IMG/VR virus record: IMGVR_UViG_3300005841_000939
Source: a virus
Taxonomy: Duplodnaviria > Caudoviricetes
Length of the DNA: 64,000 nucleotides
Strand: one strand, 5' to 3'
The translations under genes were made by a program, and so were the position numbers. How positions within the stretch are numbered: the stretch's first letter is position 1; each line of letters begins with the position of its first letter. Below, one piece after another: positions 1-46,000 of the stretch. The notes under the pieces were generated by a model. It had not been told where the DNA came from, ran no database searches, and worked only from the letters and a program-made list of their open reading frames with translations.

Positions 1-163
1 AATAATACTCTGTCAGCCCGTTAATACCAGATTCTTTGACGTAATGGTCATATTCTTTTTTATTCTTAGACATATTCGCAAAGTACAACGACTTAGCCAA
101 CTTAATCCTTGAATTTTCAAAGTCATTGAACTGAATTTTATTATATTTTTTCTTTTTATTCAT
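1..163 (-). CDS. Hypothetical protein, 3' end outside window (MNKKKKYNKIQF...)
   Basis: Manual translation from ATG at 163, open to the window edge; lies downstream of the array terminator. Confidence 0.4.
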   Translation of the reverse strand, partial: MNKKKKYNKIQFNDFENSRIKLAKSLYFANMSKNKKEYDHYVKESGINGLTEYY

Positions 164-218
164 ATTTAAAGAATATTATACGCCTTTCATATTAGGCCGC
201 AAAATGTTTATATAGGTG

Positions 219-250
219 AAAAAACCCATATACATTTCTGCATATGGGTT
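219..250 (-). terminator. Intrinsic terminator closing the tRNA array
   Basis: Minus strand AACCCATATGCA-GAAA-TGTATATGGGTT followed by TTTT, 10 nt after the last tRNA CCA. Confidence 0.85.
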
Positions 251-260
251 ATCCACTTTA

Positions 261-336
261 TGGTGCTGACAGAGGGAATTGAACCCCCAACCTATTGTTT
301 ACAAAACAATTGCTCTGCCAATTGAGCTATGTCAGC
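261..336 (-). tRNA. tRNA-Thr(UGU)
   Basis: Cloverleaf; anticodon arm ATTGT-TTTGTAA-ACAAT; encoded CCA. Confidence 0.95.
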
Positions 337-372
337 ATAAAAACATTATAAACGGTAGAATCAAAAAACAAG

Positions 373-448
373 TGGTCAGGGTAACGAGAATTGAACTCGT
401 GTTTCATCCGTGACAGGGATGCGTAATAAGCCACTATACCATACCCCG
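373..448 (-). tRNA. tRNA-Asp(GUC)
   Basis: CATCC-CTGTCAC-GGATG; T arm; CCA. Confidence 0.92.
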
Positions 449-453
449 AAAAT

Positions 454-528
454 TGGCCGCTTCCGTGGGATTCGGACCCACATGACAAGGTTCGTAGCCT
501 TGTATCCTTCCAGTTAGATGAAGAAGCG
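454..528 (-). tRNA. tRNA-Arg(ACG)
   Basis: CAAGG-CTACGAA-CCTTG; CCA. Confidence 0.92.
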
Positions 529-543
529 AAACATAAAACAAAT

Positions 544-618
544 TGGCGTCCCATAAAGGATTTGAACCTTTTCTCTCAGTTTAGAAGACTGATTTGCTTC
601 CAATTACAACAACGGGAC
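544..618 (-). tRNA. tRNA-Arg(UCU)
   Basis: TCAGT-CTTCTAA-ACTGA; CCA. Confidence 0.92.
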
Positions 619-627
619 AAGAAAAAA

Positions 628-1047
628 CATATGGTGTGCTATGCTGGGCCAAAGTCTATTGAGGTATATTCTTGAGAAGTCGGGCATACAACCTTTTGCT
701 TATCAATTGCAACGCCCTCAAACCCACCGTTCCGTAAGATACTTGATGGGCAATTCTCATGTCGTCTGTTATATCAACTTACACAAGCTTTATTGGGTCG
801 GAAATCATGCATTGCTGCAATCAAAAACCCCTTGCTCCCTGTAACTGCTTGCGCAATTTATGGGTTCTTTCGATGTAAGCCAATATCGTCAACTCTATCC
901 TAGGGTTATAAGTCTGGACTGTTGCTATGCACTCCCTGATTGCTATTCAGTTCGCTGTGCTGCCAGAAACTCTTGAACCGTTTGCGCGACAGTTCTTCCC
1001 TTCGACACTCCTTAGATGATGCCTTGTTAAAGGCCACATCCCATATG
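628..1047 (-). ncRNA. Large structured RNA A (420 nt) framed by a 23S rRNA L11-binding-domain-like motif
   Basis: Terminal stem CATATGG/CCATATG; 5' GGATGTGGCCTTTAACAAGGCATCATCTAAGGAGTG and 3' ATAGCACA resemble 23S H43/H44; several GCAA-capped hairpins inside. Confidence 0.7.
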
Positions 1048-1052
1048 CAAAT

Positions 1053-1126
1053 TGGTTCCCCGTCTGAGAATTGAACTCAGGTCTCCAGCGTCACAAGCCG
1101 ATATACTGCCATTGTACGAACGAGGG
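1053..1126 (-). tRNA. tRNA-His(GUG), non-canonical acceptor end
   Basis: CGGC-TTGTGAC-GCTG; CCA; A73 and C1.A72 mismatch, genomic -1 base is T. Confidence 0.88.
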
Positions 1127-1207
1127 AATAACAAAACCGATTTTTTCCATAGCTCGGTAAACACTATGTTCCTTAGACGAGAACACGTTCATAGAAATTT
1201 CAAATAT

Positions 1208-1282
1208 TGGTTCCCCATCCGAGAATCGAACTCGGGTCTCCGGTGCCACAAACCAGCGTACTAACCACTGTACGAATGAGAG
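1208..1282 (-). tRNA. tRNA-His(GUG), second copy, same non-canonical acceptor end
   Basis: CTGGT-TTGTGGC-ACCGG; CCA; A73 and C1.A72. Confidence 0.88.
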
Positions 1283-1283
1283 A

Positions 1284-1595
1284 ATGAGAAAGACATTTTA
1301 TAATATTGCAATGCTTCGTTTAAAAACATTACGTGATGGACATACTTGTGTATTTTGTGGCCTAACATCTAAGCTAGGTAACAAGTCATGCCGAAATCTC
1401 ATAGAGATTCATCATATTATTGAACGTCAAGATGGCGGATCTAACGAAAGTTCAAATTTAATTCCATGCTGTTCCAATCACCATTCGCTTATCCATTCAG
1501 GAAGCATCAACGTTGATCGTTGGTACAAATCCACAAAAGGATGGCTATTGCGATGGACAGATGAAACTGGTGTTGAACACTATTCACCAGAATAA
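1284..1595 (+). CDS. HNH endonuclease, antisense within the tRNA array (true start may be ATG 1311)
   Basis: CxxC...IEIHHI...GGSNESSNLIPCCSNHHSLIH HNH signature. Confidence 0.85.
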   Translation: MRKTFYNIAMLRLKTLRDGHTCVFCGLTSKLGNKSCRNLIEIHHIIERQDGGSNESSNLIPCCSNHHSLIHSGSINVDRWYKSTKGWLLRWTDETGVEHYSPE

Positions 1596-1599
1596 AAAA

Positions 1600-1945
1600 T
1601 TGTTTGAATGGTGTGTTATTACACCAAAGAACCGGTTTTCTTTACTCTTAATCAAACACGAATTATAAAAAGACACATTGAAAAAGTAATGTATTGTCTC
1701 TTTATAAAAGGAGAATAACTCCAAAGTTTCGTTCTTAAACATGTAGCTGACTCCGGTCAAAGAGTAGGATTATGAATCCTTGCGCGGTTTGTTCAGAAGA
1801 GGTTGCTAGCTAATCCCTTCGTCGTCATACTTTATTTACCTTTTTTATCAGGACCATATGACAATCATCGGGCAAGCACCTTGCTATTCAGCGAATTCAC
1901 TCTTTAAAAGATGGCTACTTCTAAGCCGACTTCCCATTCAAACAA
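1600..1945 (-). ncRNA. Large structured RNA B (346 nt) framed by a 23S rRNA L11-binding-domain-like motif
   Basis: Perfect 12-bp terminal stem TTGTTTGAATGG/CCATTCAAACAA; 5' GGAAGTCGGCTTAGAAGTAGCCATCTTTTAAAGAGTG and 3' TGTAATAACACA match the 23S 1051-1108 consensus, split by a ~290-nt insert. Confidence 0.8.
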
Positions 1946-1954
1946 AAAGAATTT

Positions 1955-2105
1955 CACGACAAAAGTGCCAAAGTAGACTCCTTGCGGATTAGCTGTGTCT
2001 ATCATTTCCACCATACTCCCAATTGGTGGGAGCACCGGGATTTAAACCACGGATGTACCTAAGTACGGCTACGGTTATATAATGTAAACTTTAACTGCAT
2101 TCGTG
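1955..2105 (-). ncRNA. Y RNA-like scaffold copy 1 with permuted type II tRNA-like domain
   Basis: CACGAATGC...TACAT...T arm, acceptor closed by ACCAATT loop, D arm...TTTTGTCGTG. Confidence 0.7.
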
Positions 2106-2110
2106 AAAAG

Positions 2111-2185
2111 TGGTGCGTCGTCTTGGAATCGAACCAAGTCCCGAGGATTAAAAGTCCCCTGCTCCACCATTTGAGCTTACAACGC
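2111..2185 (-). tRNA. tRNA-Lys(UUU)
   Basis: GGGGA-CTTTTAA-TCCTC; CCA. Confidence 0.95.
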
Positions 2186-2189
2186 GTGT

Positions 2190-2501
2190 TTATTTCTTTG
2201 GTAAATTGCCAGTTATGAAAAATTTAAGACGTTGAAAAAAGCCCATATGAACTATTTCTTCATATGACATCAACATACTTTCCATACATGAATCTTTTAA
2301 CTTATTACTTTCTTCAATCTTTTTATTTTCTTCAATCAGTCTTTTATTTTCGGATTGAAGTGAAACATAATGCTTTTGTTGATATTCGATCAAACCAGCA
2401 TGAAATGCAGTTCCGCCAACCAAAATAAATTCACGAAGTGGAATTGATTGAGGCATTGAGTCTTGCATCTGTTGCGCAGCTTTTTCTAAATCTTTAGTCA
2501 T
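2190..2501 (-). CDS. Hypothetical protein with coiled coil
   Basis: 103-aa ORF, ATG, overlaps the upstream stop (ATGA). Confidence 0.7.
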   Translation of the reverse strand: MTKDLEKAAQQMQDSMPQSIPLREFILVGGTAFHAGLIEYQQKHYVSLQSENKRLIEENKKIEESNKLKDSCMESMLMSYEEIVHMGFFQRLKFFITGNLPKK

Positions 2502-2650
2502 TTTATTTCTTTGTGATTGGTTTTAACGGACTTTGATCCATACCCTGGACCAAACTTTTCTATCTGCTTCTTATACCACAATGCATGTGATCTAAGCCTT
2601 AAGAAATCGCCAGGTCCACTTCCTTTTGGTATCGGAATTTTTCTGAACAT
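2498..2650 (-). CDS. Small basic hypothetical protein (MFRKIPIPKG..., 50 aa)
   Basis: AAGGAG RBS before ATG 2650; the longer track ORF runs into tRNA-Lys. Confidence 0.6.
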   Translation of the reverse strand: MFRKIPIPKGSGPGDFLRLRSHALWYKKQIEKFGPGYGSKSVKTNHKEIK

Positions 2651-2669
2651 GGCATCTCCTTTCTTAATT

Positions 2670-2744
2670 TGGTGGGTCGTCACGGAATCGAACCGTGTTC
2701 TCAGGATTAAGAGTCCTATGCATCGCCATTTATGCTTACAACCC
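2670..2744 (-). tRNA. tRNA-Lys(CUU)
   Basis: TAGGA-CTCTTAA-TCCTG; CCA. Confidence 0.95.
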
Positions 2745-2748
2745 AAAT

Positions 2749-3036
2749 TTATATTAAAGATAGTGTTGATTCATCAAATAGGAATTCTTTTTTGACTTGT
2801 TCAATTGGAACTTTTATGACTTGTTCGTGAAATTGCCTAGTTTCTTTATAAGACGATTTTGAATGCTTATATACATGACGAATTAGCACCGTCTTTTCAG
2901 TGACCTTCGCAATTTTACCAAACATGAATGATCTATATTCCAATTCTACAAATAAAACCCAATCACCTGCAGCTAATTCATTGCCAAGAAAATCTTTGTT
3001 CATGGCGAAAGTATATGCAACCAATTTCGTTGTCAA
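2749..3036 (-). CDS. Hypothetical protein (SH3/KOW-like small phage protein)
   Basis: ORF with DFLGNEL..GDWV.F...GKIAKVTEKTV pattern; start uncertain. Confidence 0.6.
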   Translation of the reverse strand: MTTKLVAYTFAMNKDFLGNELAAGDWVLFVELEYRSFMFGKIAKVTEKTVLIRHVYKHSKSSYKETRQFHEQVIKVPIEQVKKEFLFDESTLSLI

Positions 3037-3086
3037 TTCTAAAAGGATACCTGGTTAAGCAGCAGGGTGAGGTTACGATTCTGTCG

Positions 3087-3245
3087 TCACAGACCGATTA
3101 AATATTCTTCACTCATCACAAACGCCAAACAGTCATCATCCATTCCATTATCAATTATGACTGGACCTGTTGCTTCTGCACCATACATTTTGATGGCATT
3201 TTCCATGGAATCTTCACACAGTTTTTTGAATTCTGGATATTCCAT
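3087..3245 (-). CDS. Small acidic hypothetical protein (52 aa)
   Basis: Manual translation MEYPEFKKLCEDS...; below the track length cutoff. Confidence 0.45.
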   Translation of the reverse strand: MEYPEFKKLCEDSMENAIKMYGAEATGPVIIDNGMDDDCLAFVMSEEYLIGL

Positions 3246-3250
3246 GATGA

Positions 3251-3403
3251 TCACTTTATAATTCTAAGAGGATAAAATTTTGTTTCATCCTTCTTTTTAT
3301 TCTTTGGATTCTTACTACGTTTTTGTTCAGATTCATGCAAAAGTTTTGCATAAATTTTCTGAAACTCTTCTAACGTGATTCCTATATCGTCATCTTCTTT
3401 CAT
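3251..3403 (-). CDS. Small hypothetical protein (50 aa)
   Basis: Manual translation MKEDDDIGITLEEF... Confidence 0.4.
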   Translation of the reverse strand: MKEDDDIGITLEEFQKIYAKLLHESEQKRSKNPKNKKKDETKFYPLRIIK

Positions 3404-3420
3404 GATGAGTCTTTCTAAAA

Positions 3421-3496
3421 TGGTGGAGACGGCAGGACTCGAACCTGTAACCCTCTACGTGCAAGGCAGATGCTCTACCAATTGAGCTACGTCCCC
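3421..3496 (-). tRNA. tRNA-Ala(UGC)
   Basis: TCTGC-CTTGCAC-GTAGA; G3.U70; CCA. Confidence 0.96.
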
Positions 3497-3595
3497 ATTT
3501 TGTTTATTGATATTTAGCTTTCGCTATTTTCTTCTTCCATGATGGCCAGGAATTAAACTTTTTCTTAGCCTCTTTTAAAATTTGTGCAGATGATT

Positions 3596-4039
3596 TCATA
3601 TTTTATTGGCGAATGTATAAAACATTCCAGTCTTTGTGTCAATGAATTTATATTCCTCAACTTTATATTCAAAAACTAATGAAAATATTCCGTCTGTATC
3701 ATTTAAATCATGATCTAACTTAGTTCCATGATAGAGACCTGCCAGATAAATTTTAGTAAATTCAAGTTTCAATATTACATCACCATTTTTTGCTATTTGT
3801 GATGTAACAATTTTTTCTGGTTGTTTAAACATCAATTCAAGTGTTTTTGGATTTTTATCATCAACTAACATTTTTATTTTTAATGTATCTTTATTAGTGA
3901 AGTCAACCGTTCTCACAAGTGTTGTTAGTTCGTTCTTTGGAACTAGTTCTACGCCATTAGCATCAAAGGCTTCTACTAAAAATAGATATGATCTTAATGG
4001 ATCATTAAAAAGAAATTCTGGTTTTGGAATATTATTCAT
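3596..4039 (-). CDS. Hypothetical protein, weakly tail-tube (gp19)-like
   Basis: Start moved to ATG 4039 because the track ORF overlaps tRNA-Gln; DPLRSYLFLVE and LDH...FSLVFEY resemble gp19-family ends. Confidence 0.55.
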   Translation of the reverse strand: MNNIPKPEFLFNDPLRSYLFLVEAFDANGVELVPKNELTTLVRTVDFTNKDTLKIKMLVDDKNPKTLELMFKQPEKIVTSQIAKNGDVILKLEFTKIYLAGLYHGTKLDHDLNDTDGIFSLVFEYKVEEYKFIDTKTGMFYTFANKI

Positions 4040-4080
4040 ACAAGTAATTATACAAAATATATTACAATATGCGAGAAAAA

Positions 4081-4156
4081 TGGTTGGGGAGGAAGGATTC
4101 GAACCTTCAACTTCTGGATTCAAAGTCCAGCGTTCTACCGATTGAACTACTCCCCA
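4081..4156 (-). tRNA. tRNA-Gln(UUG)
   Basis: CTGGA-CTTTGAA-TCCAG; CCA. Confidence 0.95.
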
Positions 4157-4165
4157 ATGAAAATT

Positions 4166-4247
4166 TGGTGTGCCTGAGAGGACTTGAACCTCCACCCTTT
4201 CGGACTAGTTTCTAAAACTAGCGCGGCTGCCATTACGCCACAAGCAC
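4166..4247 (-). tRNA. tRNA-Leu(UAG)
   Basis: CTAGT-TTTAGAA-ACTAG; variable arm; A73. Confidence 0.93.
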
Positions 4248-4262
4248 ATGATGAAATTGAAA

Positions 4263-4349
4263 TGGTGTGTCCAAAAGGAGTCGAACCTTCACCCCTGTTA
4301 CGGGATTAGCACCTCAAGCTAACGCGGCTGCCAATTACGCCATAGACAC
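4263..4349 (-). tRNA. tRNA-Leu(GAG)
   Basis: TTAGC-TTGAGGT-GCTAA; long variable arm. Confidence 0.92.
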
Positions 4350-4356
4350 ATAAAAA

Positions 4357-4417
4357 TCAAGACTAATATTTGAGAAGTTTTGTTGTTTCATAATGTAAAC
4401 TTCTGCGGCATTCTTGA
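4357..4417 (-). ncRNA. Y RNA-like scaffold copy 2 (minimal, no tRNA domain)
   Basis: TCAAGAATGC..AGAAGTT-TACAT...AACTTCT...TATTAGTCTTGA. Confidence 0.65.
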
Positions 4418-4427
4418 AAAAATAAAA

Positions 4428-4522
4428 TGGCGCCCCAGGATGGATTTGAACCACCAACCTCTTCTTGATCCCCCAAGGGATGGCCTTGATCAAGAATCAC
4501 TCTACATTTGAGCTACCGGGGC
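4428..4522 (-). tRNA. tRNA-like gene with a greatly extended anticodon arm (identity undetermined)
   Basis: Normal acceptor, D and T arms and GCCA end; anticodon arm TTCTTGATC-17 nt-GATCAAGAA. Confidence 0.7.
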
Positions 4523-4532
4523 ATATAAAAAA

Positions 4533-4607
4533 TGGCACCCAAGATAGGACTCGAACCTATAACATCCTGATTAACAGTCAGGCTCTCTACCATTGAGATA
4601 CTCGGGT
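4533..4607 (-). tRNA. tRNA-Asn(GUU)
   Basis: CCTGA-CTGTTAA-TCAGG; G73; CCA. Confidence 0.94.
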
Positions 4608-4617
4608 ACAAAAAAAA

Positions 4618-4708
4618 TGGCTGGTAGTGAGGGACTCGAACCCCCATGATGTTTTTCACATCGGCTCGTTAACAGCGGGCTGCCTTACCAAATTCGGCAC
4701 AACTACCA
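4618..4708 (-). tRNA. Type II (long variable arm) tRNA with Asn anticodon GUU
   Basis: GCCCG-CTGTTAA-CGAGC; variable arm GATGT-GAAAA-ACATC; G73; CCA. Confidence 0.8.
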
Positions 4709-4720
4709 ATGAAAATAAAA

Positions 4721-4806
4721 TGGAGTCTGTAGCAGGATTTGAACCTGCGTGTGGTTTCCCAAACGGTTTTGCAAACCGTCGCTTTCAGCCGCTCAGCCAT
4801 ACAGAC
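4721..4806 (-). tRNA. tRNA-Cys(GCA) with extended variable arm
   Basis: ACGGT-TTGCAAA-ACCGT; U73; CCA. Confidence 0.9.
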
Positions 4807-4812
4807 ATATAA

Positions 4813-4891
4813 TCGCAACAAAATTTAAAAAGTTTTGGTTTTTCCAGAGCAAGCTCGGGTATATTAGATGTAAACTTTTCAGCATTTGCGA
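4813..4891 (-). ncRNA. Y RNA-like scaffold copy 3 (no tRNA domain)
   Basis: TCGCAAATGC..AAAAGTT-TACAT...AACTTTT...TTTTGTTGCGA. Confidence 0.65.
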
Positions 4892-4903
4892 AATAAAAAG
4901 AAT

Positions 4904-5036
4904 AAAGCGACAAAAAGTATGAAGTGGTTTTTCGTGTGTTAGCCGTTACACCACCACCCGTTATGGTCGGGCAGCCAGGAATCGAACCTAGATCACGTTC
5001 TCCGAATGAATGTACACCTCAAAAGGCATTCGCTTT
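4904..5036 (-). ncRNA. Y RNA-like scaffold copy 4 with permuted tRNA-like domain
   Basis: AAAGCGAATGC...TACAT...CTAGG-TTCGATT-CCTGG, CTGCCCG-ACCATAA-CGGGTGG, D arm...TTTTGTCGCTTT. Confidence 0.72.
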
Positions 5037-5039
5037 AAA

Positions 5040-5116
5040 TGGTGGTCCCTCAGGGAATCGAACCCTAACCTCAGGTTTTTCAAACCTACGTGCATACCTA
5101 ATTACACCAAAGGACC
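5040..5116 (-). tRNA. tRNA-Phe(GAA)
   Basis: TAGGT-TTGAAAA-ACCTG; CCA. Confidence 0.92.
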
Positions 5117-5133
5117 ATAATATCTTAAAAAAT

Positions 5134-5223
5134 TGGCGGATAGAGAGGGATTTGAACCCCCGGAACGTTTTCACGCTCATCGGTTTAGTAAACCGGCGCA
5201 TTCGGCCACTCTGCCATCTATCC
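5134..5223 (-). tRNA. tRNA-Ser(ACU), rare A34 anticodon
   Basis: CCGGT-TTACTAA-ACCGA; long variable arm; G73; acceptor and T arm identical to Ser(UGA) at 8811. Confidence 0.9.
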
Positions 5224-5232
5224 GTATGAAAC

Positions 5233-5306
5233 TGGTCGGTAATGATGGAGTCGAACCATCGCATTGGCCTTATGAGAGCCACGTTCTGCCGTTAAACTAA
5301 ATACCG
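5233..5306 (-). tRNA. tRNA with CAU anticodon (Met or Ile2)
   Basis: TGGCT-CTCATAA-GGCCA; A73; CCA. Confidence 0.88.
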
Positions 5307-5310
5307 ATAC

Positions 5311-5386
5311 TGGCACGCTGGGCAGGACTTGAACCTGCAACACCTGGTTTTGGAAACCAGTGCTCTGCCGATTGAGCTACCAGCGT
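5311..5386 (-). tRNA. tRNA-Trp(CCA)
   Basis: CTGGT-TTCCAAA-ACCAG; G73; CCA. Confidence 0.95.
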
Positions 5387-5393
5387 ATGAAAC

Positions 5394-5603
5394 TTAAAAA
5401 TCTTTCTCTTCAAGCAAATTTGTGCAACGACCTTCTGCAACTGCTCTATTTATGTCATCAAATTCTTTTTTGATTTCATCAAGCAATGCTTTCTTTTCTT
5501 CTTCTGATATATCAGAAGAATTTAACCTTTCTTCGGTTTTCTCATCCAAATGAATGCAACTTGAAATCATTCCTTCTGATAACCATTCCTGTGGAACTAT
5601 CAT
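5394..5603 (-). CDS. Small acidic hypothetical protein
   Basis: 69-aa ORF overlapping the HD gene stop. Confidence 0.55.
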   Translation of the reverse strand: MIVPQEWLSEGMISSCIHLDEKTEERLNSSDISEEEKKALLDEIKKEFDDINRAVAEGRCTNLLEEKDF

Positions 5604-6205
5604 TTGTCTTCTTTCTCTAAAAGGTTGTTAAAAATGATTTTGCAAATGGCCTTGCCACGACGGTCAATATGCTTCCACTTGATCTTAAAAGAATCCGAAT
5701 CAATACCACCAAACATATTGGCATTTGAATGGATTTCAGCAAGACCTGCAATTAGAAGTGTTATTGCTTCTTTGCGTTTGCAAAATTCTTCAATTTGTTC
5801 TGCTTTGAGACGATGAATATCCATATCCAACCTAATGAGATTGGCAATTTGTTCATCACCTCCATGATCTAACCAAATTTGTGCAGAAATTTCCGCATGA
5901 TTTGGAAAATGAATGCGACCTTCGCTATCAGTTTCCTGACAGAATGGTTTGCCGCAATCATGAAAAAGGGCATACTCAAGAATTGTTTCGGTGTCTAACA
6001 GATTCCCTAAAATCTGTGACTTGTATAATTGAAACCATTCAGGGAGTCGCCAATTTGGCAACACCTATGTTTCACCTTTTATAAACTGAATCAACTCTTG
6101 AAGATGATTCTTGACTGATTCTCCGTGTTGGAGAATCGTTTGATGTTGATTTTGATTACAACCCTTCATCTTTTCGATGAGGATCTACTGAAAGTCCTGC
6201 TTCAT
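5600..6205 (-). CDS. HD-domain phosphohydrolase with two in-frame TAG codons (6185-6187 and 6065-6067)
   Basis: AAGGA RBS before ATG 6205; same frame as track ORF 5600..6064; LQHG (first His), FHDCGKP and later DMDIH/EIHSN motifs. Confidence 0.7.
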
Positions 6206-6213
6206 GATGTTCC

Positions 6214-6384
6214 TTAAATGGTTGATGCGAGAGCGAGCGATGTTGCTATGCGTGAAAGTTCGTCATTTCTTTTACTATCAATTTGACCATTGTTCCATCC
6301 AATTTCTCGAATGTGAAATGCCAACGCCAAAGAATTTTCAAATTCTTCAACTTCAATTAATTTTTCTCCAACTCTAATCATCAT
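6214..6384 (-). CDS. Small hypothetical protein (56 aa)
   Basis: Manual translation MMIRVGEKLIEVEEF...; ATGA overlap with the HNH stop. Confidence 0.5.
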   Translation of the reverse strand: MMIRVGEKLIEVEEFENSLALAFHIREIGWNNGQIDSKRNDELSRIATSLALASTI

Positions 6385-6689
6385 TTCAATCTTTCTGATT
6401 TTTGAATTGCGAGTTGTTTTGACGATTTAATTTTATTATACAAGTCATCAGGATGGAAATTTGGTTCCCATTCTTTCCCTTGTGTAATATGAAATTTTTC
6501 TGCCATCATGTGATGGGTTGGGCAAAGAGAAATACCATTCTCTTTGACATAGCCACCGTTTGGCATTTCATTTCGATCAGTTATGTGATGCGCATCAAGA
6601 TTTTCTTTAATGTCACAAAACAAACATTTGCCACCGTCTCGCTTGAAGACTGCGTTGCGAAATGCTGAACGAATTTCCTTCTTGTTCAT
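6381..6689 (-). CDS. HNH endonuclease
   Basis: CLFC...LDAHHI...NGISLCPTHH. Confidence 0.85.
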   Translation of the reverse strand: MNKKEIRSAFRNAVFKRDGGKCLFCDIKENLDAHHITDRNEMPNGGYVKENGISLCPTHHMMAEKFHITQGKEWEPNFHPDDLYNKIKSSKQLAIQKSERLK

Positions 6690-6769
6690 GGCTTACGACA
6701 TAAGTTTAAGCCTTGTTTTTATATGTCAACTGAAAAAACACCTGGGTATTCGCTGTCTTTCAAACTCTG

Positions 6770-6887
6770 GTTAGTTGATGCATTCAACATCACCAATGCG
6801 CCAAGTGTGTATTGAAAATGCCGCAGTCAGGATATGCGCCAGCTTTGAACTTCTAGTTAGTTGATGCATCAACATCACTAATGCGCC
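6770..6887 (-). repeat. Direct repeat of a ~33-nt hairpin with ATGCA loop
   Basis: gttagttgatgcat(t)caacatcac(c/t)aatgcgcc at 6770-6802 and 6856-6887; related hairpin at 7090-7110. Confidence 0.8.
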
Positions 6888-6901
6888 TGAGATTGGCTTT
6901 T

Positions 6902-6977
6902 TGGTGGACAATGAGGGATTTGAACCCCCGACCTCTTGAATGTAAATCAAGCACTCTAGCCGCTGAGTTAATCGTCC
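6902..6977 (-). tRNA. tRNA-Val(UAC)
   Basis: CTTGA-TTTACAT-TCAAG; CCA. Confidence 0.94.
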
Positions 6978-7145
6978 AAAAATTGAAATTATAAAGGCAG
7001 CTTTCAATCGCGACCATATCGTATAATTTCTTCCTGTTTTTTATCCATGATGGATCATCATGCTATGCTTTTGACTTGTTGCAAACAAGCAATGTTATGC
7101 ATTAACATTGTTAGCATCTAACCGTCGCTAGATGCCCAAAAAAGA

Positions 7146-7212
7146 AATACGACTAAAAGCGAATAAGAGGGGTTATCTTAAATGGATGTACTCCTATTCT
7201 AGCATTCGTATT
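7146..7212 (-). ncRNA. Y RNA-like scaffold copy 5 (no tRNA domain)
   Basis: AATACGAATGC..GAATAGGAG-TACAT...CTCTTATTC-GCTTTTAGTCGTATT. Confidence 0.68.
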
Positions 7213-7214
7213 AT

Positions 7215-7300
7215 TGGTGCCCATAGCCGGACTTGAACCAGCACCCCTGTTACGGGAGAGGATTTTGAATCCACCGCGGCTGCCATTACGCCATACGGGC
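7215..7300 (-). tRNA. tRNA-Leu(CAA)
   Basis: GTGGA-TTCAAAA-TCCTC; long variable arm. Confidence 0.92.
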
Positions 7301-7343
7301 AAAAATTGATTGTCTAAAATGGTTGTGAATACTTTCGTTTATA

Positions 7344-7448
7344 GAAATGGTCTGCCGTAGCACGTTGGCCATTTCTTTGACGGGAGCATTCATATCTAAA
7401 AGGTGCCAATAATATCCCCAAAGCTGCCGTAGCACGTTCTATGAGGAA
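7344..7448 (-). repeat. Two hairpins with an identical 15-nt apical sequence AACGTGCTACGGCAG
   Basis: ctgccgtagcacgtt at 7352-7366 and 7424-7438, each between different complementary flanks. Confidence 0.8.
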
Positions 7449-7459
7449 GATGGCGAAAT

Positions 7460-7532
7460 TGCTGCGACACTTGGATTTAAACCAAGACTTTCCGATTTCC
7501 CCTCGGTGCTCTAATTATTAAGCTATATCACA
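7460..7532 (-). pseudogene. Degenerate tRNA-like element
   Basis: Acceptor, D and T arms fold; anticodon loop GGGGAAA lacks U33; 3' end GCAA. Confidence 0.6.
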
Positions 7533-7538
7533 ATAAGA

Positions 7539-7615
7539 TGGTCAGTATGAGAGGATTTGAACCTCTGACTTCTGGCTTCCAAAACCAGCACTCTTCCAGG
7601 CTGAGCTACACACTG
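7539..7615 (-). tRNA. tRNA-Pro(UGG)
   Basis: CTGGT-TTTGGAA-GCCAG; CCA. Confidence 0.94.
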
Positions 7616-7623
7616 ATAAAAAG

Positions 7624-7725
7624 TTTCACAACAAAATAAAAAAGAAGTGCTCCCCAATAGAGCATCTGAGGTTTCCCTAAGATTGGAATCGAACCAATAA
7701 TGTATTCTTTTTAGCATTTGTGAAA
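7624..7725 (-). ncRNA. Y RNA-like scaffold copy 6 with minimal permuted tRNA-like domain
   Basis: TTTCACAAATGC..TACAT-T-ATTGG-TTCGATT-CCAAT-CTTAGG-GAAA-CCTCAG-AT-GCTC-TATTGGG-GAGC...TTTTGTTGTGAAA. Confidence 0.72.
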
Positions 7726-7731
7726 ATGAAA

Positions 7732-7818
7732 TGGTGGGTGAAATAGGACTCGAACCTATGAAGTCATTAAAGACGGGACGTTTACAGCGTCCAGCAATTG
7801 CCGCTATGCGATTCACCC
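7732..7818 (-). tRNA. tRNA-Tyr(GUA)
   Basis: GGACG-CTGTAAA-CGTCC; long variable arm; A73. Confidence 0.94.
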
Positions 7819-7823
7819 AAAAA

Positions 7824-7964
7824 TATCACGACTAAATTGCGAAAGAAAATGGCTTGCGCCGAATCGGCTGTTCTACCGCTGAACTACATCACACCGAAAT
7901 GTGATGGTGGGATTTGAACCCACGACAGGCTGATGGAATGTAATCCTTCATTGCATTCGTGATA
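7824..7964 (-). ncRNA. Y RNA-like scaffold copy 7 with permuted tRNA-like domain
   Basis: TCACGAATGC..TACAT...GTGGG-TTCAAAT-CCCAC, CATCACA-TTTCGG-TGTGATG, GTTC-AGCGGTA-GAAC...TTTAGTCGTGA. Confidence 0.75.
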
Positions 7965-7975
7965 AAAACTGAAAA

Positions 7976-8052
7976 TGGTCGGACATGCTGGATTTGAACC
8001 AGCGGTCTCTTGCTCCCAAAGCAAGCGCGATACCAGGCTACGCTAATGTCCG
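7976..8052 (-). tRNA. tRNA-Pro(UGG), second copy
   Basis: CTTGC-TTTGGGA-GCAAG; CCA. Confidence 0.92.
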
Positions 8053-8054
8053 AA

Positions 8055-8131
8055 AAGCCGATCCGTCAAGATTTTAACTTGAATCTCCCAGCGTATAGTG
8101 CCAGGCATTCTTTACGTTGAACTACGAATCG
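8055..8131 (-). pseudogene. Degenerate tRNA-like element (no CCA, no U33)
   Basis: Cloverleaf folds; loop ACTATAC; T loop TTAAAAT; 3' end GCTT. Confidence 0.6.
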
Positions 8132-8146
8132 AAAAGTAAACTAAAA

Positions 8147-8223
8147 AGGCCCGACTGTCAAGATTTGAACTTGAATTTTCCAGCCATGACGGCCGGACGT
8201 TCTTTGCATTGAACTACAATCAG
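8147..8223 (-). pseudogene. Degenerate tRNA-like element, paralog of 8055-8131
   Basis: Cloverleaf folds; loop CGTCATG; 3' end GCCT. Confidence 0.6.
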
Positions 8224-8228
8224 AAAAA

Positions 8229-8361
8229 GAAACGACTAAAAGCGAAAAGATGTATTACGCGCTCTACCGGTGAGCTAAACGAGCAAATTGGCGCCCGCTC
8301 CAGGAATCGAACCTGGTCCTCGTCCTTAACATGGATGTAATCCTTTCAAAGCATTCGTTTC
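8229..8361 (-). ncRNA. Y RNA-like scaffold copy 8 with permuted tRNA-like domain
   Basis: GAAACGAATGC..TACAT...CCAGG-TTCGATT-CCTGG, AGCGGGC-GCCAATTT-GCTCGTT, GCTC-ACCGGTA-GAGC...TTTTAGTCGTTTC. Confidence 0.75.
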
Positions 8362-8370
8362 AAAGAAAAG

Positions 8371-8501
8371 GTCTGACAAATATTAGAGAAATTGTTTTTT
8401 AATGCTACCGTTACACCATACACACCTTTCGATGTGCAATAGGATTCGAACCTATACCCTTTGATTATCGGTCAATGTAAATCTCTCAAAGGCATTCAGA
8501 C
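8371..8501 (-). ncRNA. Y RNA-like scaffold copy 9 with permuted tRNA-like domain
   Basis: GTCTGAATGC..TACAT...ATAGG-TTCGAAT-CCTAT, TGCACAT-CGAAAG-GTGTGTA, D arm...TTTGTCAGAC. Confidence 0.72.
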
Positions 8502-8504
8502 TTG

Positions 8505-8580
8505 TGGTTGGCATACCAGGAATCGAACCTGGATCTTAACTTTATCAGAGTTATGTGATGAACCATTCTACTATACGCCA
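8505..8580 (-). tRNA. tRNA-Ile(GAU)
   Basis: TAACT-CTGATAA-AGTTA; A73; CCA. Confidence 0.93.
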
Positions 8581-8810
8581 ATATGGTGATGTCGATTTTT
8601 AGGCCGACACCACTAATCCAACGTTTAAACTCGGTTTTACCCAAATCTCCTAACGTTGGCAAAAGGAATGCTACTAGCCTTTCGACTAATAGCATTTTTA
8701 ATGCTATTTTTTGATTCTACAGTTATAAAGTTTTCAAGTTTGAATCTGGAACCATTATTCTGTCGTTCTTGGGTTTAGCAAGAACTATCCTTTTTGGTTT
8801 GTCGATTCAT

Positions 8811-8900
8811 TGGCGGATAGAGAGGGATTTGAACCCCCGGAGCCCTTTCAGGCCCTCTAGTTTTCAAGACTAGCGCAATAAGCCGCTCTGCCATCTATCC
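8811..8900 (-). tRNA. tRNA-Ser(UGA), first tRNA of the array
   Basis: CTAGT-CTTGAAA-ACTAG; long variable arm; G73. Confidence 0.95.
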
Positions 8901-8930
8901 AGCACATTCTAAATTTTTCAAAGATACTAC

Positions 8931-8966
8931 AAAACGAAAAACCCTGAGACTTTTTGGTCCCAGGGT
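8931..8966 (-). terminator. Attenuator-type intrinsic terminator just upstream of the first tRNA
   Basis: ACCCTGGGAC-CAAAAA-GTCTCAGGGT followed by TTTTCGTTTT. Confidence 0.85.
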
Positions 8967-8991
8967 CTTGAGTCAGTCAGTTATGACCTTC

Positions 8992-9108
8992 TCAGTTGGG
9001 ACCACTTCCGTTTCTATCCAACGGATTTGAGCGGCAAGGATATGTATTAAATGCTACTTGAGCATTCCAGACCTTGCTTTTCATAATGAGTTGATGGGAG
9101 CGTTTCAT
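8992..9108 (-). CDS. Putative 38-aa attenuator leader peptide MKRSHQLIMKSKVWNAQVAFNTYPCRSNPLDRNGSGPN
   Basis: Manual translation ATG 9108 to TGA 8992; 19 of 20 amino acids; its last codons carry TGGTCCCA, complementary to the terminator 5' arm; no clear SD. Confidence 0.65.
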   Translation of the reverse strand: MKRSHQLIMKSKVWNAQVAFNTYPCRSNPLDRNGSGPN

Positions 9109-12596: not shown

Positions 12597-13376
12597 ATGG
12601 AAAAAAATAAATTTGAAGAAGGTCTGATCAAACAAGTATCAAGTCTAGCTAACGCTGGTGACGGTAATGATGGTCAAAAGAAAGTATTAGTTAATCAAGC
12701 AATTCAAATAAAAACACAAGATGCAAAATCTTTAAAAGATTTACAAGCTAATTTAAAAAAGTCACAAAGCGTTATCAGTAAGTCAATTAACTTGGTGACT
12801 GACCGTGATACTCGCAATGCGATGCAAAAAACTGTTGCTAATTTAAATAATACGTTGAAACAAAAATCTGATAAAGTTGGTGCTGATATTGACGCTATTA
12901 AGAGCGAAGCCAAAGAAGCGTTGGCTGTTTTGGATGCCCAAAAAACAACTGATCAAGAAGATAATCAAACCAGTACAATAGGGAGTTTTAAAAATACTAT
13001 GTCATTCATGGAAGAAAGCGAAGCCCTATTAGCAGGTAATAATTTACAGAAGATAGAAGATTTCCTTAAATCATCACCTTATTTAATGCTTCAAATATTG
13101 TCAACTGCAATAATGAATAAGCCTGGATTTCCAACTTGGTCATTGGCTGACATTGAATCAAACCCAAGTATTCTTCGTTCACCTGAAATGAAGGTAAAAA
13201 TGCAAAAAGTGGCAAATTCCAACTTTCCTGCATTCTTCAACAGTACTTTTAAGAAAGTTTTTCCGGCCGCTGGAAACAATCCGTCAGCATGGGCAAAACA
13301 ATTCAGCAATGACACCGCAGATTTAAACAACCCAAGAGTCGTTGAACTTCTGCAACGTGTCACAAATGTAAATTAA
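12597..13376 (+). CDS. Hypothetical coiled-coil protein
   Basis: 259-aa ORF; CATAAATA box at 12574-12581 and a GAG-rich RBS. Confidence 0.8.
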   Translation: MEKNKFEEGLIKQVSSLANAGDGNDGQKKVLVNQAIQIKTQDAKSLKDLQANLKKSQSVISKSINLVTDRDTRNAMQKTVANLNNTLKQKSDKVGADIDAIKSEAKEALAVLDAQKTTDQEDNQTSTIGSFKNTMSFMEESEALLAGNNLQKIEDFLKSSPYLMLQILSTAIMNKPGFPTWSLADIESNPSILRSPEMKVKMQKVANSNFPAFFNSTFKKVFPAAGNNPSAWAKQFSNDTADLNNPRVVELLQRVTNVN

Positions 13377-43092: not shown

Positions 43093-46000
43093 TGGTCACG
43101 TTTCCTCTTACATAGTAATAGTCTGATGGTATTTCCCATCCATCTGCATATGTTTTTATACCACTATTGTACCATGCAGTGTACTTTTCATATAAAGCAG
43201 GAATTGCCCAAATGAAATTGTATCCATCTGAAACACCAAATACCTTACGGTCAGTTGTATTGATGCATTCTGTCTTATCTTTATCTATGGTAATATACAA
43301 TACCGAACCAAATGGTGGAATTTCAGTTGTATATGTCAAATATTTGTTAACTTTGATATTTTTTGTATCAGGTTTCCAATAAACGTAATTTATTTTGAAA
43401 CATTTAGTAAATTCGTCGTTCCAATCACTGACATCCCAACCTGCTTTTTCTCTTTCTTGAATTGATCCAAGATTTGAATGTGTTAAATACCAGTTATATA
43501 AACCGTATGGTGACGTTGTTCTTTCTCCAGTTTCTTTATTCAAGAAGAATGTTAAATCAAGAACCTTATCACCGGAAATATCAACAACATCAATCGGCAT
43601 ATTGATATGCATGTAGAAACTAGTTGGAATTAACTTTTCACCACTAATTGAAGCACCAGTTGAAAATCCAATTTTTTCATATGCAGATACATCAAATACA
43701 CCTACACCATAAGAATTATTATTTGTTGCCCATTCTTCGTCAACAGATACTGAACTGATGCACCAAGTAATATCAGCATTGTATAATGCTTGATTATAGT
43801 CATTATCTTTAATCAAGTGTACAAACTCTGCTGACGGAGCATTTGTTCCAGTAAACAAATTTATACCATCATTTGGTGGAAGAACTGTATTAAATGTTTC
43901 CTTTATGTAAAATTCGCTATTGATCCACCAATTGTAATCGTCAGTGAATGTTGCATATCCTTCCAACACACCAACTAACGATTGTACTTTTTCTGGCAAA
44001 TACCAAACATTATTGATTGTGCAAGTTTCTCTTGTCTTCCATGGTTGTGATGCTTTTACAGGACATATATTGAAATCACAACCATAAGTTGAACCAAATG
44101 GCTTTTCAACCGAATACGCCAAATCAGCATTCAAATCCAAGAAATAACGTGATGTTATTCTACCGTTTAATTGGATGTCCCATTTATTTTGTTCAAGAAT
44201 TTGTAATGTACGATTTTCTGTGAATTGGAAACCTTCAAATGAGTGTGGCGCATAAACACCCAACAAATTTATTTTAACTTGTGGGTTTCTCAAGATTTCC
44301 AGCGATGGTAAACAATAAACGCTACCTTCTTCTAATTTTCCGATTGGAATGAAATAACGCAAAGTGGTTGTTTCTTCTGGTTCCCAATACCAATCCTTAT
44401 TATAATTTTTTACAGCATAAGATGGTAATGTAACATCAAACAATCCAAAAATCATAGTATCAACGCAATATCTGCAAATCAAATCTTTGATTACATCATT
44501 ACTCTTGAATTTTACACCAATTGCTTCTTCTTGTGTCGTCTTATCTCTGTAAATAATAGAAAGAACTTCGTTTGATCCTGTTGCAACTCCAGTTGAACCA
44601 TTAAACGACCAAACATCTTGGTTTGATTGTGGGCAAATTTCTTCCCATACACCAATCAAATGAACATTACCATCTGAATTTAATAATTGACTACATACAT
44701 TATTAGGATATAACATATCCTTTACACGGATCATTTCTGAGAAACTGATTTGTGTTGATCCGCTTAATGCAACAGTATGTGGCAAAATTCTTGCGTCTGA
44801 TGCAATCACACGATTTAATGATGCGTGATTTGTAATGTCATATGAAGTACTTGAATCAACTGGAATCCAATTGATAAATGGTTCATAAACATGCCCCAAC
44901 GGTATGAGAACTTTTGAAATTAAATCTGCATCATCTTTGAATGTGTTTGCAACAAATTGATCATCCAACCAAATATTAAATCTAGTTGAAATTGAATCAG
45001 TTGATACCTTATTGAAAAATACTTTTTCAATTGAATTGTCGTCAATATTTTCAAATTGACTGATGTCATATGAAGTTTGTCCATTATAACTTGGAGTTAT
45101 TTCGTAATCAAAGGTGTTCTTTGTTGTTGGATCATTTTCATCATATGAATTGAATTTCAATAATGTGCTATCTCTTGAATCAAGATAATGTGCCTTAATT
45201 GTTTTCCATTTCTCTTCTGTACGTACTAATGTAATATCAGTATGATCTTTAGGTTCAACAATATATGAAATTAAGCGAACGATTGATGTCTTAACACCAA
45301 ATCCATAAAAACCTTCTTCAATAATTGGAATGTAATTTTCTGCAACATTAACTACATTCCCATCCAATCCATATATTTGCGTGTCATTATTAGTCTGATC
45401 TAATTTAACATTTGTAAATACATCAATGTAATCTTGTGCATCAGTATAATCAACAACAGCAATTGCACCAGGAATATCATTTTTCAACTTAGTCCAAGCA
45501 ACATTTTTTCTGAATTTTACAGAAACCAAATTATCAACAACAGAAACGATAACATCGTAATAACTGTTTTCATCAAATTTAAATGTATGACCAAATTCAT
45601 CAATTATAGTTGTTTCATATACTTGTTTATCCTTTTCATTGAGAAGCGGATTTAAATTTAAGTAACGATAGTAATATGCATAATTTTCTTTTGAATATGT
45701 TACGTTTACTAATTTTATTGTTGATTTATTTCCATCAACAACAACTGCATAATAATCATCAACAGTAGAATATACATCCTTGTTTCTATAAACAGCGCGG
45801 AAAACAATTTCAATACTCTTTGATGGAATTATTGTGTTTTCAGCATAATCACTTGGTTTTGCATATGCCCAGCGAACAGTAATATCCAAATTTTTCCATT
45901 GTACATCACTACTCAAAATACCTGATACACCATTTTTATCTAAGTTTGATTCTTTGTAAACGACAGATAATGTATCTGAACCTTCTAGAAGAGTATTTGG

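Follow-up and report, generated by a model that had tools for sequence, protein, structure and literature searches.

What are the small structured elements that lie between the tRNA genes of a large phage, and with which protein would their RNAs work? The question is raised by a stretch of 64,000 nucleotides, the window, which is the reverse of G000:C1:38471-102470 and comes from a 262,529-bp IMG/VR virus record (a 262.5-kb genome rated as 97% complete). An earlier note, made from the letters of the window, described there a family of nine RNA scaffolds, six of them with circularly permuted tRNA domains, and likened them to YrlA, a bacterial Y RNA. As set out below, the elements are very probably phage-encoded Y RNAs of the YrlA and YrlB types, that is, RNA partners of the phage's own orthologue of Ro60 (Rsr). 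To judge from sequence and predicted fold, six of them are YrlA-like permuted tRNA mimics and four are YrlB-like short forms. The sequencing runs that hold DNA of this phage are rhizosphere metagenomes only, and a megablast search with the region found no match among 50,697 phage records.

A single family of ten elements

The elements, here called E1 to E10, form a single, well-supported Y RNA family. All nine copies first reported were confirmed at their coordinates, on the minus strand of the window, but the total is ten, as E10 lies outside the window. Their anatomy is common to all. On the 5′ side, a closing stem (S1) of 6-9 bp is followed by AAUGC plus 0-4 nt and by an inner stem (S2) of 6-10 bp, which directly abuts UACAU; a variable cargo comes next. 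The 3′ side consists of the 3′ strand of S2, a U-rich loop ending in UU[AU]G and the 3′ strand of S1, which begins with U[CU]. The copies without tRNA cargo had been counted as three (E2, E3 and E5); these stand, and become four once E10 is included. In all four, the cargo is limited to A-rich loops or small hairpins.

A covariance model (R1) was built from these four cargo-less copies only, with the structure set by hand, because MAFFT misaligned the cargos of the six long copies. R1 recovers the six copies with tRNA cargo at E values of 1e-5 to 1e-3 (262.5-kb genome, both strands), and the next match genome-wide, at E=0.6, is without UACAU and the 3′ motif. A second model, R2, finds exactly ten copies in the genome. 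The de novo covariance model that had been suggested as a check thus unites the short and the tRNA-cargo copies, and finds no other members in the genome. Among the candidates that were set aside, a hairpin with GAAGAAUGC at window 13189-13239 (minus; R1 E=0.28) is not a member, as it is without UACAU and the 3′ motif, and the motif-pattern candidates at window 9042-9067 and elsewhere were rejected for missing the same two features.

Covariation was examined at two levels. In an alignment of 16 matches from three phages (including the false positive at 13189-13239), 91.5% of the cells are paired, 12 of the 14 pairs have changed on both sides, and the covariation score is 0.852, compared with at most 0.17 when the partner strand is slid. 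For 148 further members, 93.3% of cells are paired, 13 of the 14 pairs have changed on both sides, and the score is 0.806 against at most 0.13 for slid partners. Such alignments are fitted to the model, so the structure is favoured in them; the slid controls and the cross-validation by R1 are independent of the fitting. Both the closing and the inner stem, which the earlier note had described as co-varying, are supported in the two alignments. In addition, across three phages with guanine-cytosine (GC) contents of 31 to 65%, all 15 copies have AAUGC, UACAU and GU unchanged.

Relation to YrlA

In the Rfam model of YrlA (RF02553), the consensus reads acggCgaAUGC ... ggGgaaCUAc ... T arm, acceptor hairpin, UA, D arm ... 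cUuGucGccg. The motifs first noticed in the window, RAAUGC, UACAU and UU(A/U)GUY, correspond to the conserved CGAAUGC, YUAY and UUGUCG of this model. cmscan aligns E7 and E8 with it from end to end, including T, AS and D, and their CGAAUGC, UAC and UUAGUCG fall on CgaAUGC, CUAc and cUuGucG. The proposed search with the Rfam YrlA model gave full-length, sub-threshold matches to E6, E7 and E8 (41.7, 37.9 and 32.6 bits, respectively). At the Rfam gathering thresholds only tRNAs are reported, and YrlA is seen in E-value mode alone.

In YrlA, GNCGAAN0-1G is the motif of the Ro-binding region, and YUAY is also conserved (PMC4201824). The UAC of the latter is invariant in the ten copies and nearly so family-wide (U 100%, A 99%, C 100%); the base before it varies (U, G, A or C), so that the first Y holds only loosely. 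Across the family, the frequencies for CGAAUG are C 65%, G 92%, A 99%, A 100%, U 100% and G 97%. In a relative, G001, six of eight copies read GGCCGAAUG, which is a full match to GNCGAAN0-1G. The YrlA domain order of T stem-loop, closed acceptor and D stem-loop is found in six of the ten copies. The YrlA-like, Y RNA reading of the earlier note thus holds, by handle motifs, by topology and by the Ro60 encoded in the same genome.

Permuted tRNA-like cargos

As had been described, six cargos run in the order T arm, acceptor 3′ strand, loop, acceptor 5′ strand and D arm, and the anticodon arm is absent. T and D loops are canonical in five of these six. The tRNA likeness was examined by rejoining the halves of each cargo in tRNA order through a generic anticodon arm and submitting the product to ARAGORN. 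After this de-permutation, tRNAs were called for five of six cargos (E1 was the exception) and for none of six mismatched chimeras. The native elements, by contrast with these rejoined forms, are not called as tRNA by ARAGORN or Rfam, save for a 19-bit partial match on E9. A functional tRNA matured from a permuted gene would have an anticodon arm with a 7-nt loop, and the elements have no such arm.

Two kinds of closure are seen at the acceptor. The internal NCCA that had been noticed in three loops is present in E1, E4 and E8, where a 7-bp acceptor is followed by NCCA and a spacer of 3-4 nt. In E6, E7 and E9, the acceptor is sealed by GAAA, UUCG and GAAA tetraloops, respectively. The NCCA-plus-spacer loops resemble a tRNA-tRNA junction of the phage's own array. 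Thus, they fit an origin of YrlA from dimeric tRNA transcripts (10.1101/312249), and they also fit the RNase P cleavage and CCA addition that occur on the Mycobacterium smegmatis YrlA, which has a 7-bp acceptor (PMC4201824). Elsewhere in the family, the exact NCCA junction occurs in 6 of 85 copies with a T arm and tetraloop caps in 18.

Two statements about the parentage of the cargos fared less well. One cargo had been singled out as being of type II; a variable-region hairpin is present, but it is not distinctive, as E4 and E8 have it too, as do many YrlA RNAs. The claim that the cargos come from different tRNAs is not demonstrable, and no cargo can be assigned to a parent tRNA. The best identities between cargos and the 34 phage tRNAs are 0.67-0.74, within the background between one tRNA and another (0.62-0.92, median 0.75), and the attempt at assignment was dropped for this reason. 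Among themselves, the cargos are 46-74% alike.

The phage Rsr gene

The observation that no Ro60 gene is visible in the window was correct; nevertheless, the genome does encode a Ro60/Rsr orthologue, 8.3 kb past the window edge. The gene occupies genome positions 110810-112501 on the + strand, which is also the strand of the Y RNAs. Its product has the domains expected of Ro60 (Pfam vWA_Ro60, 6e-19, profile positions 2-165 of 165; TROVE, 6e-7), together with an NCBIfam Rsr match of 4e-24 that is under the equivalog cut-off. Over residues 21-526 it matches the PDB entries 2nvo (Deinococcus radiodurans Rsr; 1e-21), 9nen (2e-19) and 1yvp (2e-15), and over residues 21-460 it also matches human and Xenopus Ro60.

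The gene is part of an island of translation and tRNA genes outside the window (G000:C1:110060-121380, or L006:7861-19181). A calcineurin-type phosphoesterase is encoded upstream; downstream are a class II CCA-adding or PcnB-type nucleotidyltransferase, an IF3 homologue and TyrRS. A role in RtcB repair, one of the options raised for the RNAs, has lost its basis, as there is no RtcB in the genome.

A stand-alone vWA protein of 259 amino acids is encoded near the array, outside the window (G000:C1:103186-103965, or L006:987-1766). Homologues with 28-39% identity are encoded by Myxococcus phage Mx1 and at three further loci with Y RNAs (L030, L052 and L076). It could represent a second protein that recurs in Y-RNA islands.

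Relatives and co-occurrence with Rsr

Relatives were sought in viral contigs by an RNA motif alone (GAATGC, 8-15 nt, TACAT, 1-30 nt, T loop), which gave at least 115 stretches, and 80 loci were analysed. R2 confirms at least 155 members in the 80 loci. At least 148 further members are found in about 50 contigs, usually with 2-9 per phage. Their sizes are bimodal, at about 60-70 nt and 120-140 nt, and 41 of the 148 have no T arm, hence could not have been selected by the retrieval pattern. Among the matches listed, the present phage has the most copies per contig (10), followed by 9, 9, 8, 8, 8, 6 and downwards, in a ranking that is biased because R2 was trained largely on the copies of this 262-kb phage. 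GAAUGC, UACAU, U-GUC and an S2 G-U wobble adjoining a G-C are nearly invariant family-wide, which is partly due to the retrieval pattern and the model. In S2, two pairs below UACAU, this wobble is present in 110 of 148 members beside the G-C in 140 of 148 (alignment A9, columns 19-372 and 20-370); the conserved G-U/G-C may be a feature that is recognized by protein.

In these contigs, the RNA and Rsr are often found together. An Rsr homologue lies inside 21 of the 80 short loci, which had been retrieved by RNA motif and not by protein, and elsewhere on the contig in a further 21 of 33 R2-positive contigs. In total, 36 of 48 RNA-positive contigs have Rsr, compared with 383 of 50,697 phage records (0.76%) with any Rsr-like match; this background is all phage records, and phages with tRNA arrays would be a fitter comparison.

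Among cultured phages, the closest Rsr is that of Mx1, with 45% identity. Together with Rsr, Mx1 has two unannotated family members in a tRNA array, at L017:256-379 (OR576727.2 45170-45293) and L017:608-709. The latter (OR576727.2 45522-45623; R2 67 bits) lies under the coding sequence WNM70101.1, annotated as 'hypothetical protein' (45524-45646), which is probably a mis-call. In G001, a GC-rich IMG/VR contig whose Rsr is 42% identical, eight members flank Rsr inside a tRNA array, all within 2.4 kb of it. In G023, three copies lie at most 0.9 kb upstream of Rsr, and the copies of G001 and G023 are overall 0.1-2.4 kb away.

Two members of G001 differ in topology. At L002:7667-7775 and L002:8180-8306, an unpermuted tRNA-like cloverleaf is carried on the handle via its acceptor stem. 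UACAU is paired with AUGUA in the former; the latter has an Rfam tRNA score of 45.9 bits and an 'anticodon' loop of 4 nt. Thus, one handle displays tRNA mimics in different topologies. Pfam gave no matches on the open reading frames of L002.

Arrangement in the tRNA array

Positions 1-9000 of the window are a minus-strand tRNA array, with 27 tRNA genes called by ARAGORN and three more by Rfam. CCA is encoded in 33 of the 34 phage tRNAs, and the spacers of the array are 2-17 nt long. The Y elements share the minus strand with the tRNA genes and fill slots between them. Each starts 2-13 nt behind the preceding tRNA or sister element, and for eight of the ten the next gene follows 4-12 nt past the end. 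A scan for promoters and terminators gave no signal higher than in shuffled sequence.

Proposed mechanism and alternative explanations

A mechanism may be outlined for such RNAs. Because the spacing of the array is so tight, the Y RNAs would be made within polycistronic tRNA transcripts. The same arrangement suggests that their ends are set by the enzymes that process the neighbouring tRNAs, with the closing stem being protective. Rsr would grip this stem and its bulge, as can be supposed from published work on Rsr, YrlA, Yrn1 and the Yrl RNAs of phage phiLo, and the far end of each RNA might recruit a second protein or merely gate the Rsr ring. For instance, tRNA-like L-shapes could draw tRNA-binding enzymes, while open loops could draw a 3′-5′ exoribonuclease such as the host PNPase. 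E1, E4 and E8 are predicted substrates of RNase P; cleavage would turn each of them into a mimic of two pieces whose CCA end is free. In this manner, up to ten alternative adaptors might programme a single phage Ro60 for the surveillance or decay of RNA in infection. Taken as a whole, this proposal of a programmable phage Ro60 system, with one Rsr ring, up to ten interchangeable adaptors that are born from the tRNA array and matured like its genes, heads that target different enzymes or RNAs, and NCCA copies that are YrlA-origin intermediates opened by RNase P, is tentative and rather unlikely to be correct in full. The head types that it distinguishes are sealed permuted, permuted with a cleavable NCCA, unpermuted (as in G001) and absent.

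Several observations weigh against even the simpler identification of the elements as Y RNAs that partner the phage Rsr. Y RNA genes have been expected within 4 kb of Ro60 (Chen 2014, PMC4201824), but here the distance ranges from 10.3 kb (E1) to 16.8 kb (E9) upstream, and E10 is 9.9 kb downstream. The gathering score of RF02553 (69 bits) is reached by no copy, the best being 41.7. This threshold does not separate phage members, however: in phages Catera and Blueeyedbeauty, the YrlA-like match next to the Ro gene is similarly low, at 36 and 34 bits, respectively. CGAAUG is present in five of the ten copies, the rest having CAAAUG (three), AGAAUG or UGAAUG, and the G two positions upstream in GNCGAAN0-1G is not kept in this genome. 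The phosphoesterase and the CCA-adding-type enzyme are not conserved neighbours of Rsr in other loci, so the link to repair is weak. No RNA-seq runs holding DNA of this phage were found that would bear on expression, ends and processing. In addition, four complete phages of 48-70 kb (G007, G018, G024 and G026) have one or two members and no detectable Rsr; a host Ro60 may serve them instead, or else the function of the RNA may be independent of Rsr. Conversely, five Rsr-encoding relatives, four of them fragments and one complete (G006), are without a family member. At the Rsr relatives L003 and L018-L021, neither an R2 or RF02553 member nor a nearby tRNA array was found, and a weak candidate at L003 20781-20851 (minus) is not counted as a member.

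Some of these observations would be expected if the RNAs acted apart from Rsr, as tRNA decoys that soak up or inhibit tRNA-targeting defence enzymes or toxins, with the handle serving as a stabilising clamp. The six tRNA mimics are good ones, with ends that are sealed and uncleavable; Rsr is about 10 kb off in the phage genome; and the four complete small phages have members of the family but no Rsr gene. Competitive inhibition of an anticodon nuclease by YrlA has, moreover, been raised as a possibility (Hughes 2020, PMC7790460). Nevertheless, decoys of this kind seem improbable. The handle is kept without a tRNA-like module in four copies of this phage and in 41 of the 148 others, so the conserved part is the handle and not the mimic. 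Furthermore, the invariant letters of the handle are those of the Ro-binding region of YrlA, the co-occurrence with Rsr reaches 75%, and the mimics offer no anticodon loop to anticodon nucleases.

The position of the elements in tRNA-like slots with spacers of 2-13 nt, and the degenerate T and D loops of E1, could also suggest that they are debris of tRNA genes or hairpins that guide RNase P, E or Z in the processing of the operon, with no role in trans. Such an explanation is very improbable, as unpaired motifs are invariant and compensatory changes occur across phages of 31 to 65% GC, stable GNRA and UNCG caps are present, and the size distribution is bimodal and conserved, and the family is associated with Rsr; debris would not be expected to retain a covarying scaffold of 14 bp. 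Scarcely credible, finally, is that these are circularly permuted tRNA genes that mature into working tRNAs, as in the red alga Cyanidioschyzon merolae, through excision of the handle, ligation to form an anticodon loop, and opening of the acceptor by RNase P. Their topology is indeed that of permuted pre-tRNAs (Wang 2018, 10.1101/312249), and E1, E4 and E8 have NCCA plus a spacer at the junction. However, bacteria have no known bulge-helix-bulge motif or splicing endonuclease (10.1101/312249), the genome is without an RtcB ligase, three cargos are sealed by tetraloops, and in four copies a tRNA part is missing altogether. In addition, the handle is conserved, unlike an intron-like segment that is discarded.

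Individual elements and their surroundings

The long, YrlA-like elements of the window lie on its minus strand, as do the short ones. E1 (1954..2106; R1 34.3 and R2 63.7 bits) starts 5 nt past tRNA-Lys(UUU). Its T loop is degenerate (UUUAAAU), its D loop has no GG, a variable-region hairpin is present, and its 7-bp acceptor is closed by the loop ACCA+AUU. E4 (4903..5037; R1 30.1, R2 66.4 and RF02553 22.5 bits) starts 3 nt past tRNA-Phe and has a canonical T loop, UUCGAUU, the D loop AACGGCUA, a variable-region hairpin and a 7-bp acceptor with the loop ACCA+UAA. In E6 (7624..7725; R1 37.2 and R2 58.2 bits), the RF02553 match of 41.7 bits covers model positions 1-114, and the cargo consists of a T arm, a 7-bp acceptor-like hairpin with its GAAA cap and a D arm, with a minimal variable region. 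E7 (7824..7964; RF02553 37.9, R1 29.3 and R2 57.9 bits) has a T arm, an 8-bp acceptor with the UUCG cap, a UA linker and the D loop AGCGGUA. E8 (8229..8361; RF02553 32.6, R1 33.4 and R2 66.7 bits) also has a T arm and a UA linker, with the D loop ACCGGUA, a variable-region hairpin and a 7-bp acceptor with the loop GCCA+AUUU. E9 (8371..8501; R1 30.0 and R2 61.2 bits) starts 3 nt past tRNA-Ile; its cargo has a T arm, an 8-bp acceptor with the GAAA cap and the D loop AACGGUA.

The short elements were all seeds of R1. E2 (4357..4417; R2 54.6 bits), which is YrlB-like, consists of the handle and an 18-nt A-rich loop, with no tRNA-like domain. E3 (4813..4891; R2 51.5 bits) lies 12 nt past E4 and has two small hairpins on the handle. 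E5 (7146..7212; R2 60.2 bits), also YrlB-like, starts 2 nt past tRNA-Leu(CAA), and E10 (genome 122379-122445) is flanked by tRNA-Met and tRNA-Glu.

The tRNA array has other unusual genes, all on the minus strand. At window 8058-8131 and 8148-8223 there is a pair of sister tRNAs, in which the acceptor measures 8 bp and the T stem 4 bp. The anticodon of one is UCA; this tRNA is tRNA-SeC according to ARAGORN, and it could be a UGA suppressor. The other, with the loop ACUAUAC, is detected by Rfam only. A tRNA-like gene of 92 nt at 4431-4522 scores 42.5 bits with the Rfam tRNA model, whereas ARAGORN does not detect it. In place of a 7-nt loop, the anticodon arm has an extra small hairpin on its stem of 9 bp. 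It is either a tRNA with an intron or else a further tRNA mimic. The type II tRNAs at 4618-4708, 4721-4806 and 5134-5223 have long variable arms and unexpected anticodons, namely GUU (Asn, 91 nt), GCA (Cys, 86 nt) and ACU (90 nt). Finally, an open reading frame for an HD-domain protein lies inside the array (5600-6064), with a homologue of 49% identity in L062.

Significance

It has been published that a phage may encode Ro60 with one or two Y-like RNAs (PMC4201824; PMC12135203). What is new here is the copy number, the three classes of head, the packaging in tRNA arrays and the wide spread in large phages. Among the papers searched, none describes Y RNA sets with many copies that are scattered through the tRNA arrays of a phage, although reviews may hold an earlier mention. 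Two general questions come into view, namely what the tRNA-like domain of bacterial Y RNAs binds and why several Y RNAs are needed by a Ro60. The more than 150 natural variants from about 50 viral contigs combine a fixed handle with heads that are sealed, cleavable or missing. They are a comparative set that is useful for finding the effector of Y RNAs and that bears on the 'dimeric tRNA' model for the origin of YrlA. As Mx1 is cultured and has two members along with Rsr, the system is open to experiment. For annotation, Rfam thresholds miss such RNAs, and the Mx1 record has one under a 'hypothetical protein' gene.

Comparison with known systems

YrlB is a short RNA that Salmonella and M. smegmatis encode as their second Y RNA, along with YrlA. 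E2, E3, E5 and E10 resemble it as short RNAs with an Rsr handle and no full tRNA-like domain, although this comparison is by handle and description, as no YrlB model of Rfam was matched, and there are four short copies here.

YrlA is known from Salmonella Typhimurium, M. smegmatis and about 250 bacteria (PMC4201824; 10.1101/312249), and it has been described as a permuted tRNA in which the acceptor is sealed and the scaffold takes the place of the anticodon arm (10.1101/312249). In M. smegmatis it is modified by TruB and DusA, and cleaved by RNase P with CCA addition (PMC4201824). The phage RNAs share with YrlA the closing stem with CGAAUGC, whose CGAAUG is complete in five of the ten copies, and UUGUCG, the UA(C) with which the variable region opens, the location on the same strand as rsr and the module order of T arm, closed acceptor stem, UA and D arm. 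The 7-bp acceptor with a CCA junction of E1, E4 and E8 parallels the YrlA that is cleaved by RNase P in M. smegmatis. Unlike YrlA, the phage RNAs score 22-42 bits with RF02553 against the gathering score of 69, and do not keep the GN of GNCGAA. There are ten genes instead of one or two, spread through tRNA arrays 10-17 kb from rsr rather than within 4 kb of it, and there is no rtcBA operon.

Yrn1 of D. radiodurans, as it acts in RYPER (Rsr, Y RNA and PNPase), offers a similar working model, in which a Y RNA handle sits on Ro60 and another module tethers an exoribonuclease or gates the ring. However, the tRNA-like parts of Yrn1 are differently arranged (PMC4201824), and in a comparable scheme the exoribonuclease for the phage ribonucleoprotein would be a host enzyme. 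The permuted tRNA genes of Cyanidioschyzon merolae share the order of 3′ half, junction and 5′ half and the closed acceptor of the primary transcript. They yield real tRNAs with anticodons, whereas the phage elements have no anticodon arm, and their terminal stem is a conserved handle.

Among phages, TROVE proteins are known in jumbo phages (PMC7824862), Ro60 with one or two Y-like RNAs has been reported in 22 phages, and YrlA RNAs in the mycobacteriophage group of Catera (Chen 2014, PMC4201824). In the Thermus phage phiLo, phiRo60 binds two phage Yrl RNAs (Yrl1 and Yrl2) and the host PNPase (PMC12135203). The Rsr described here is only 22-25% identical to the Ro proteins of the mycobacteriophages and phiLo, and the R2 handle model detects neither the Y RNAs of Catera-type mycobacteriophages nor those of phiLo. 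In Catera, the single YrlA-like match, of 36 bits, lies 190 nt upstream of Ro. What is common to Catera-type (Bxz1/Catera) phages, phiLo and the present phage is a phage Ro60 plus phage Y-like RNAs; in Catera-type phages and phiLo, the RNAs number one or two and adjoin the Ro gene, compared with ten here.

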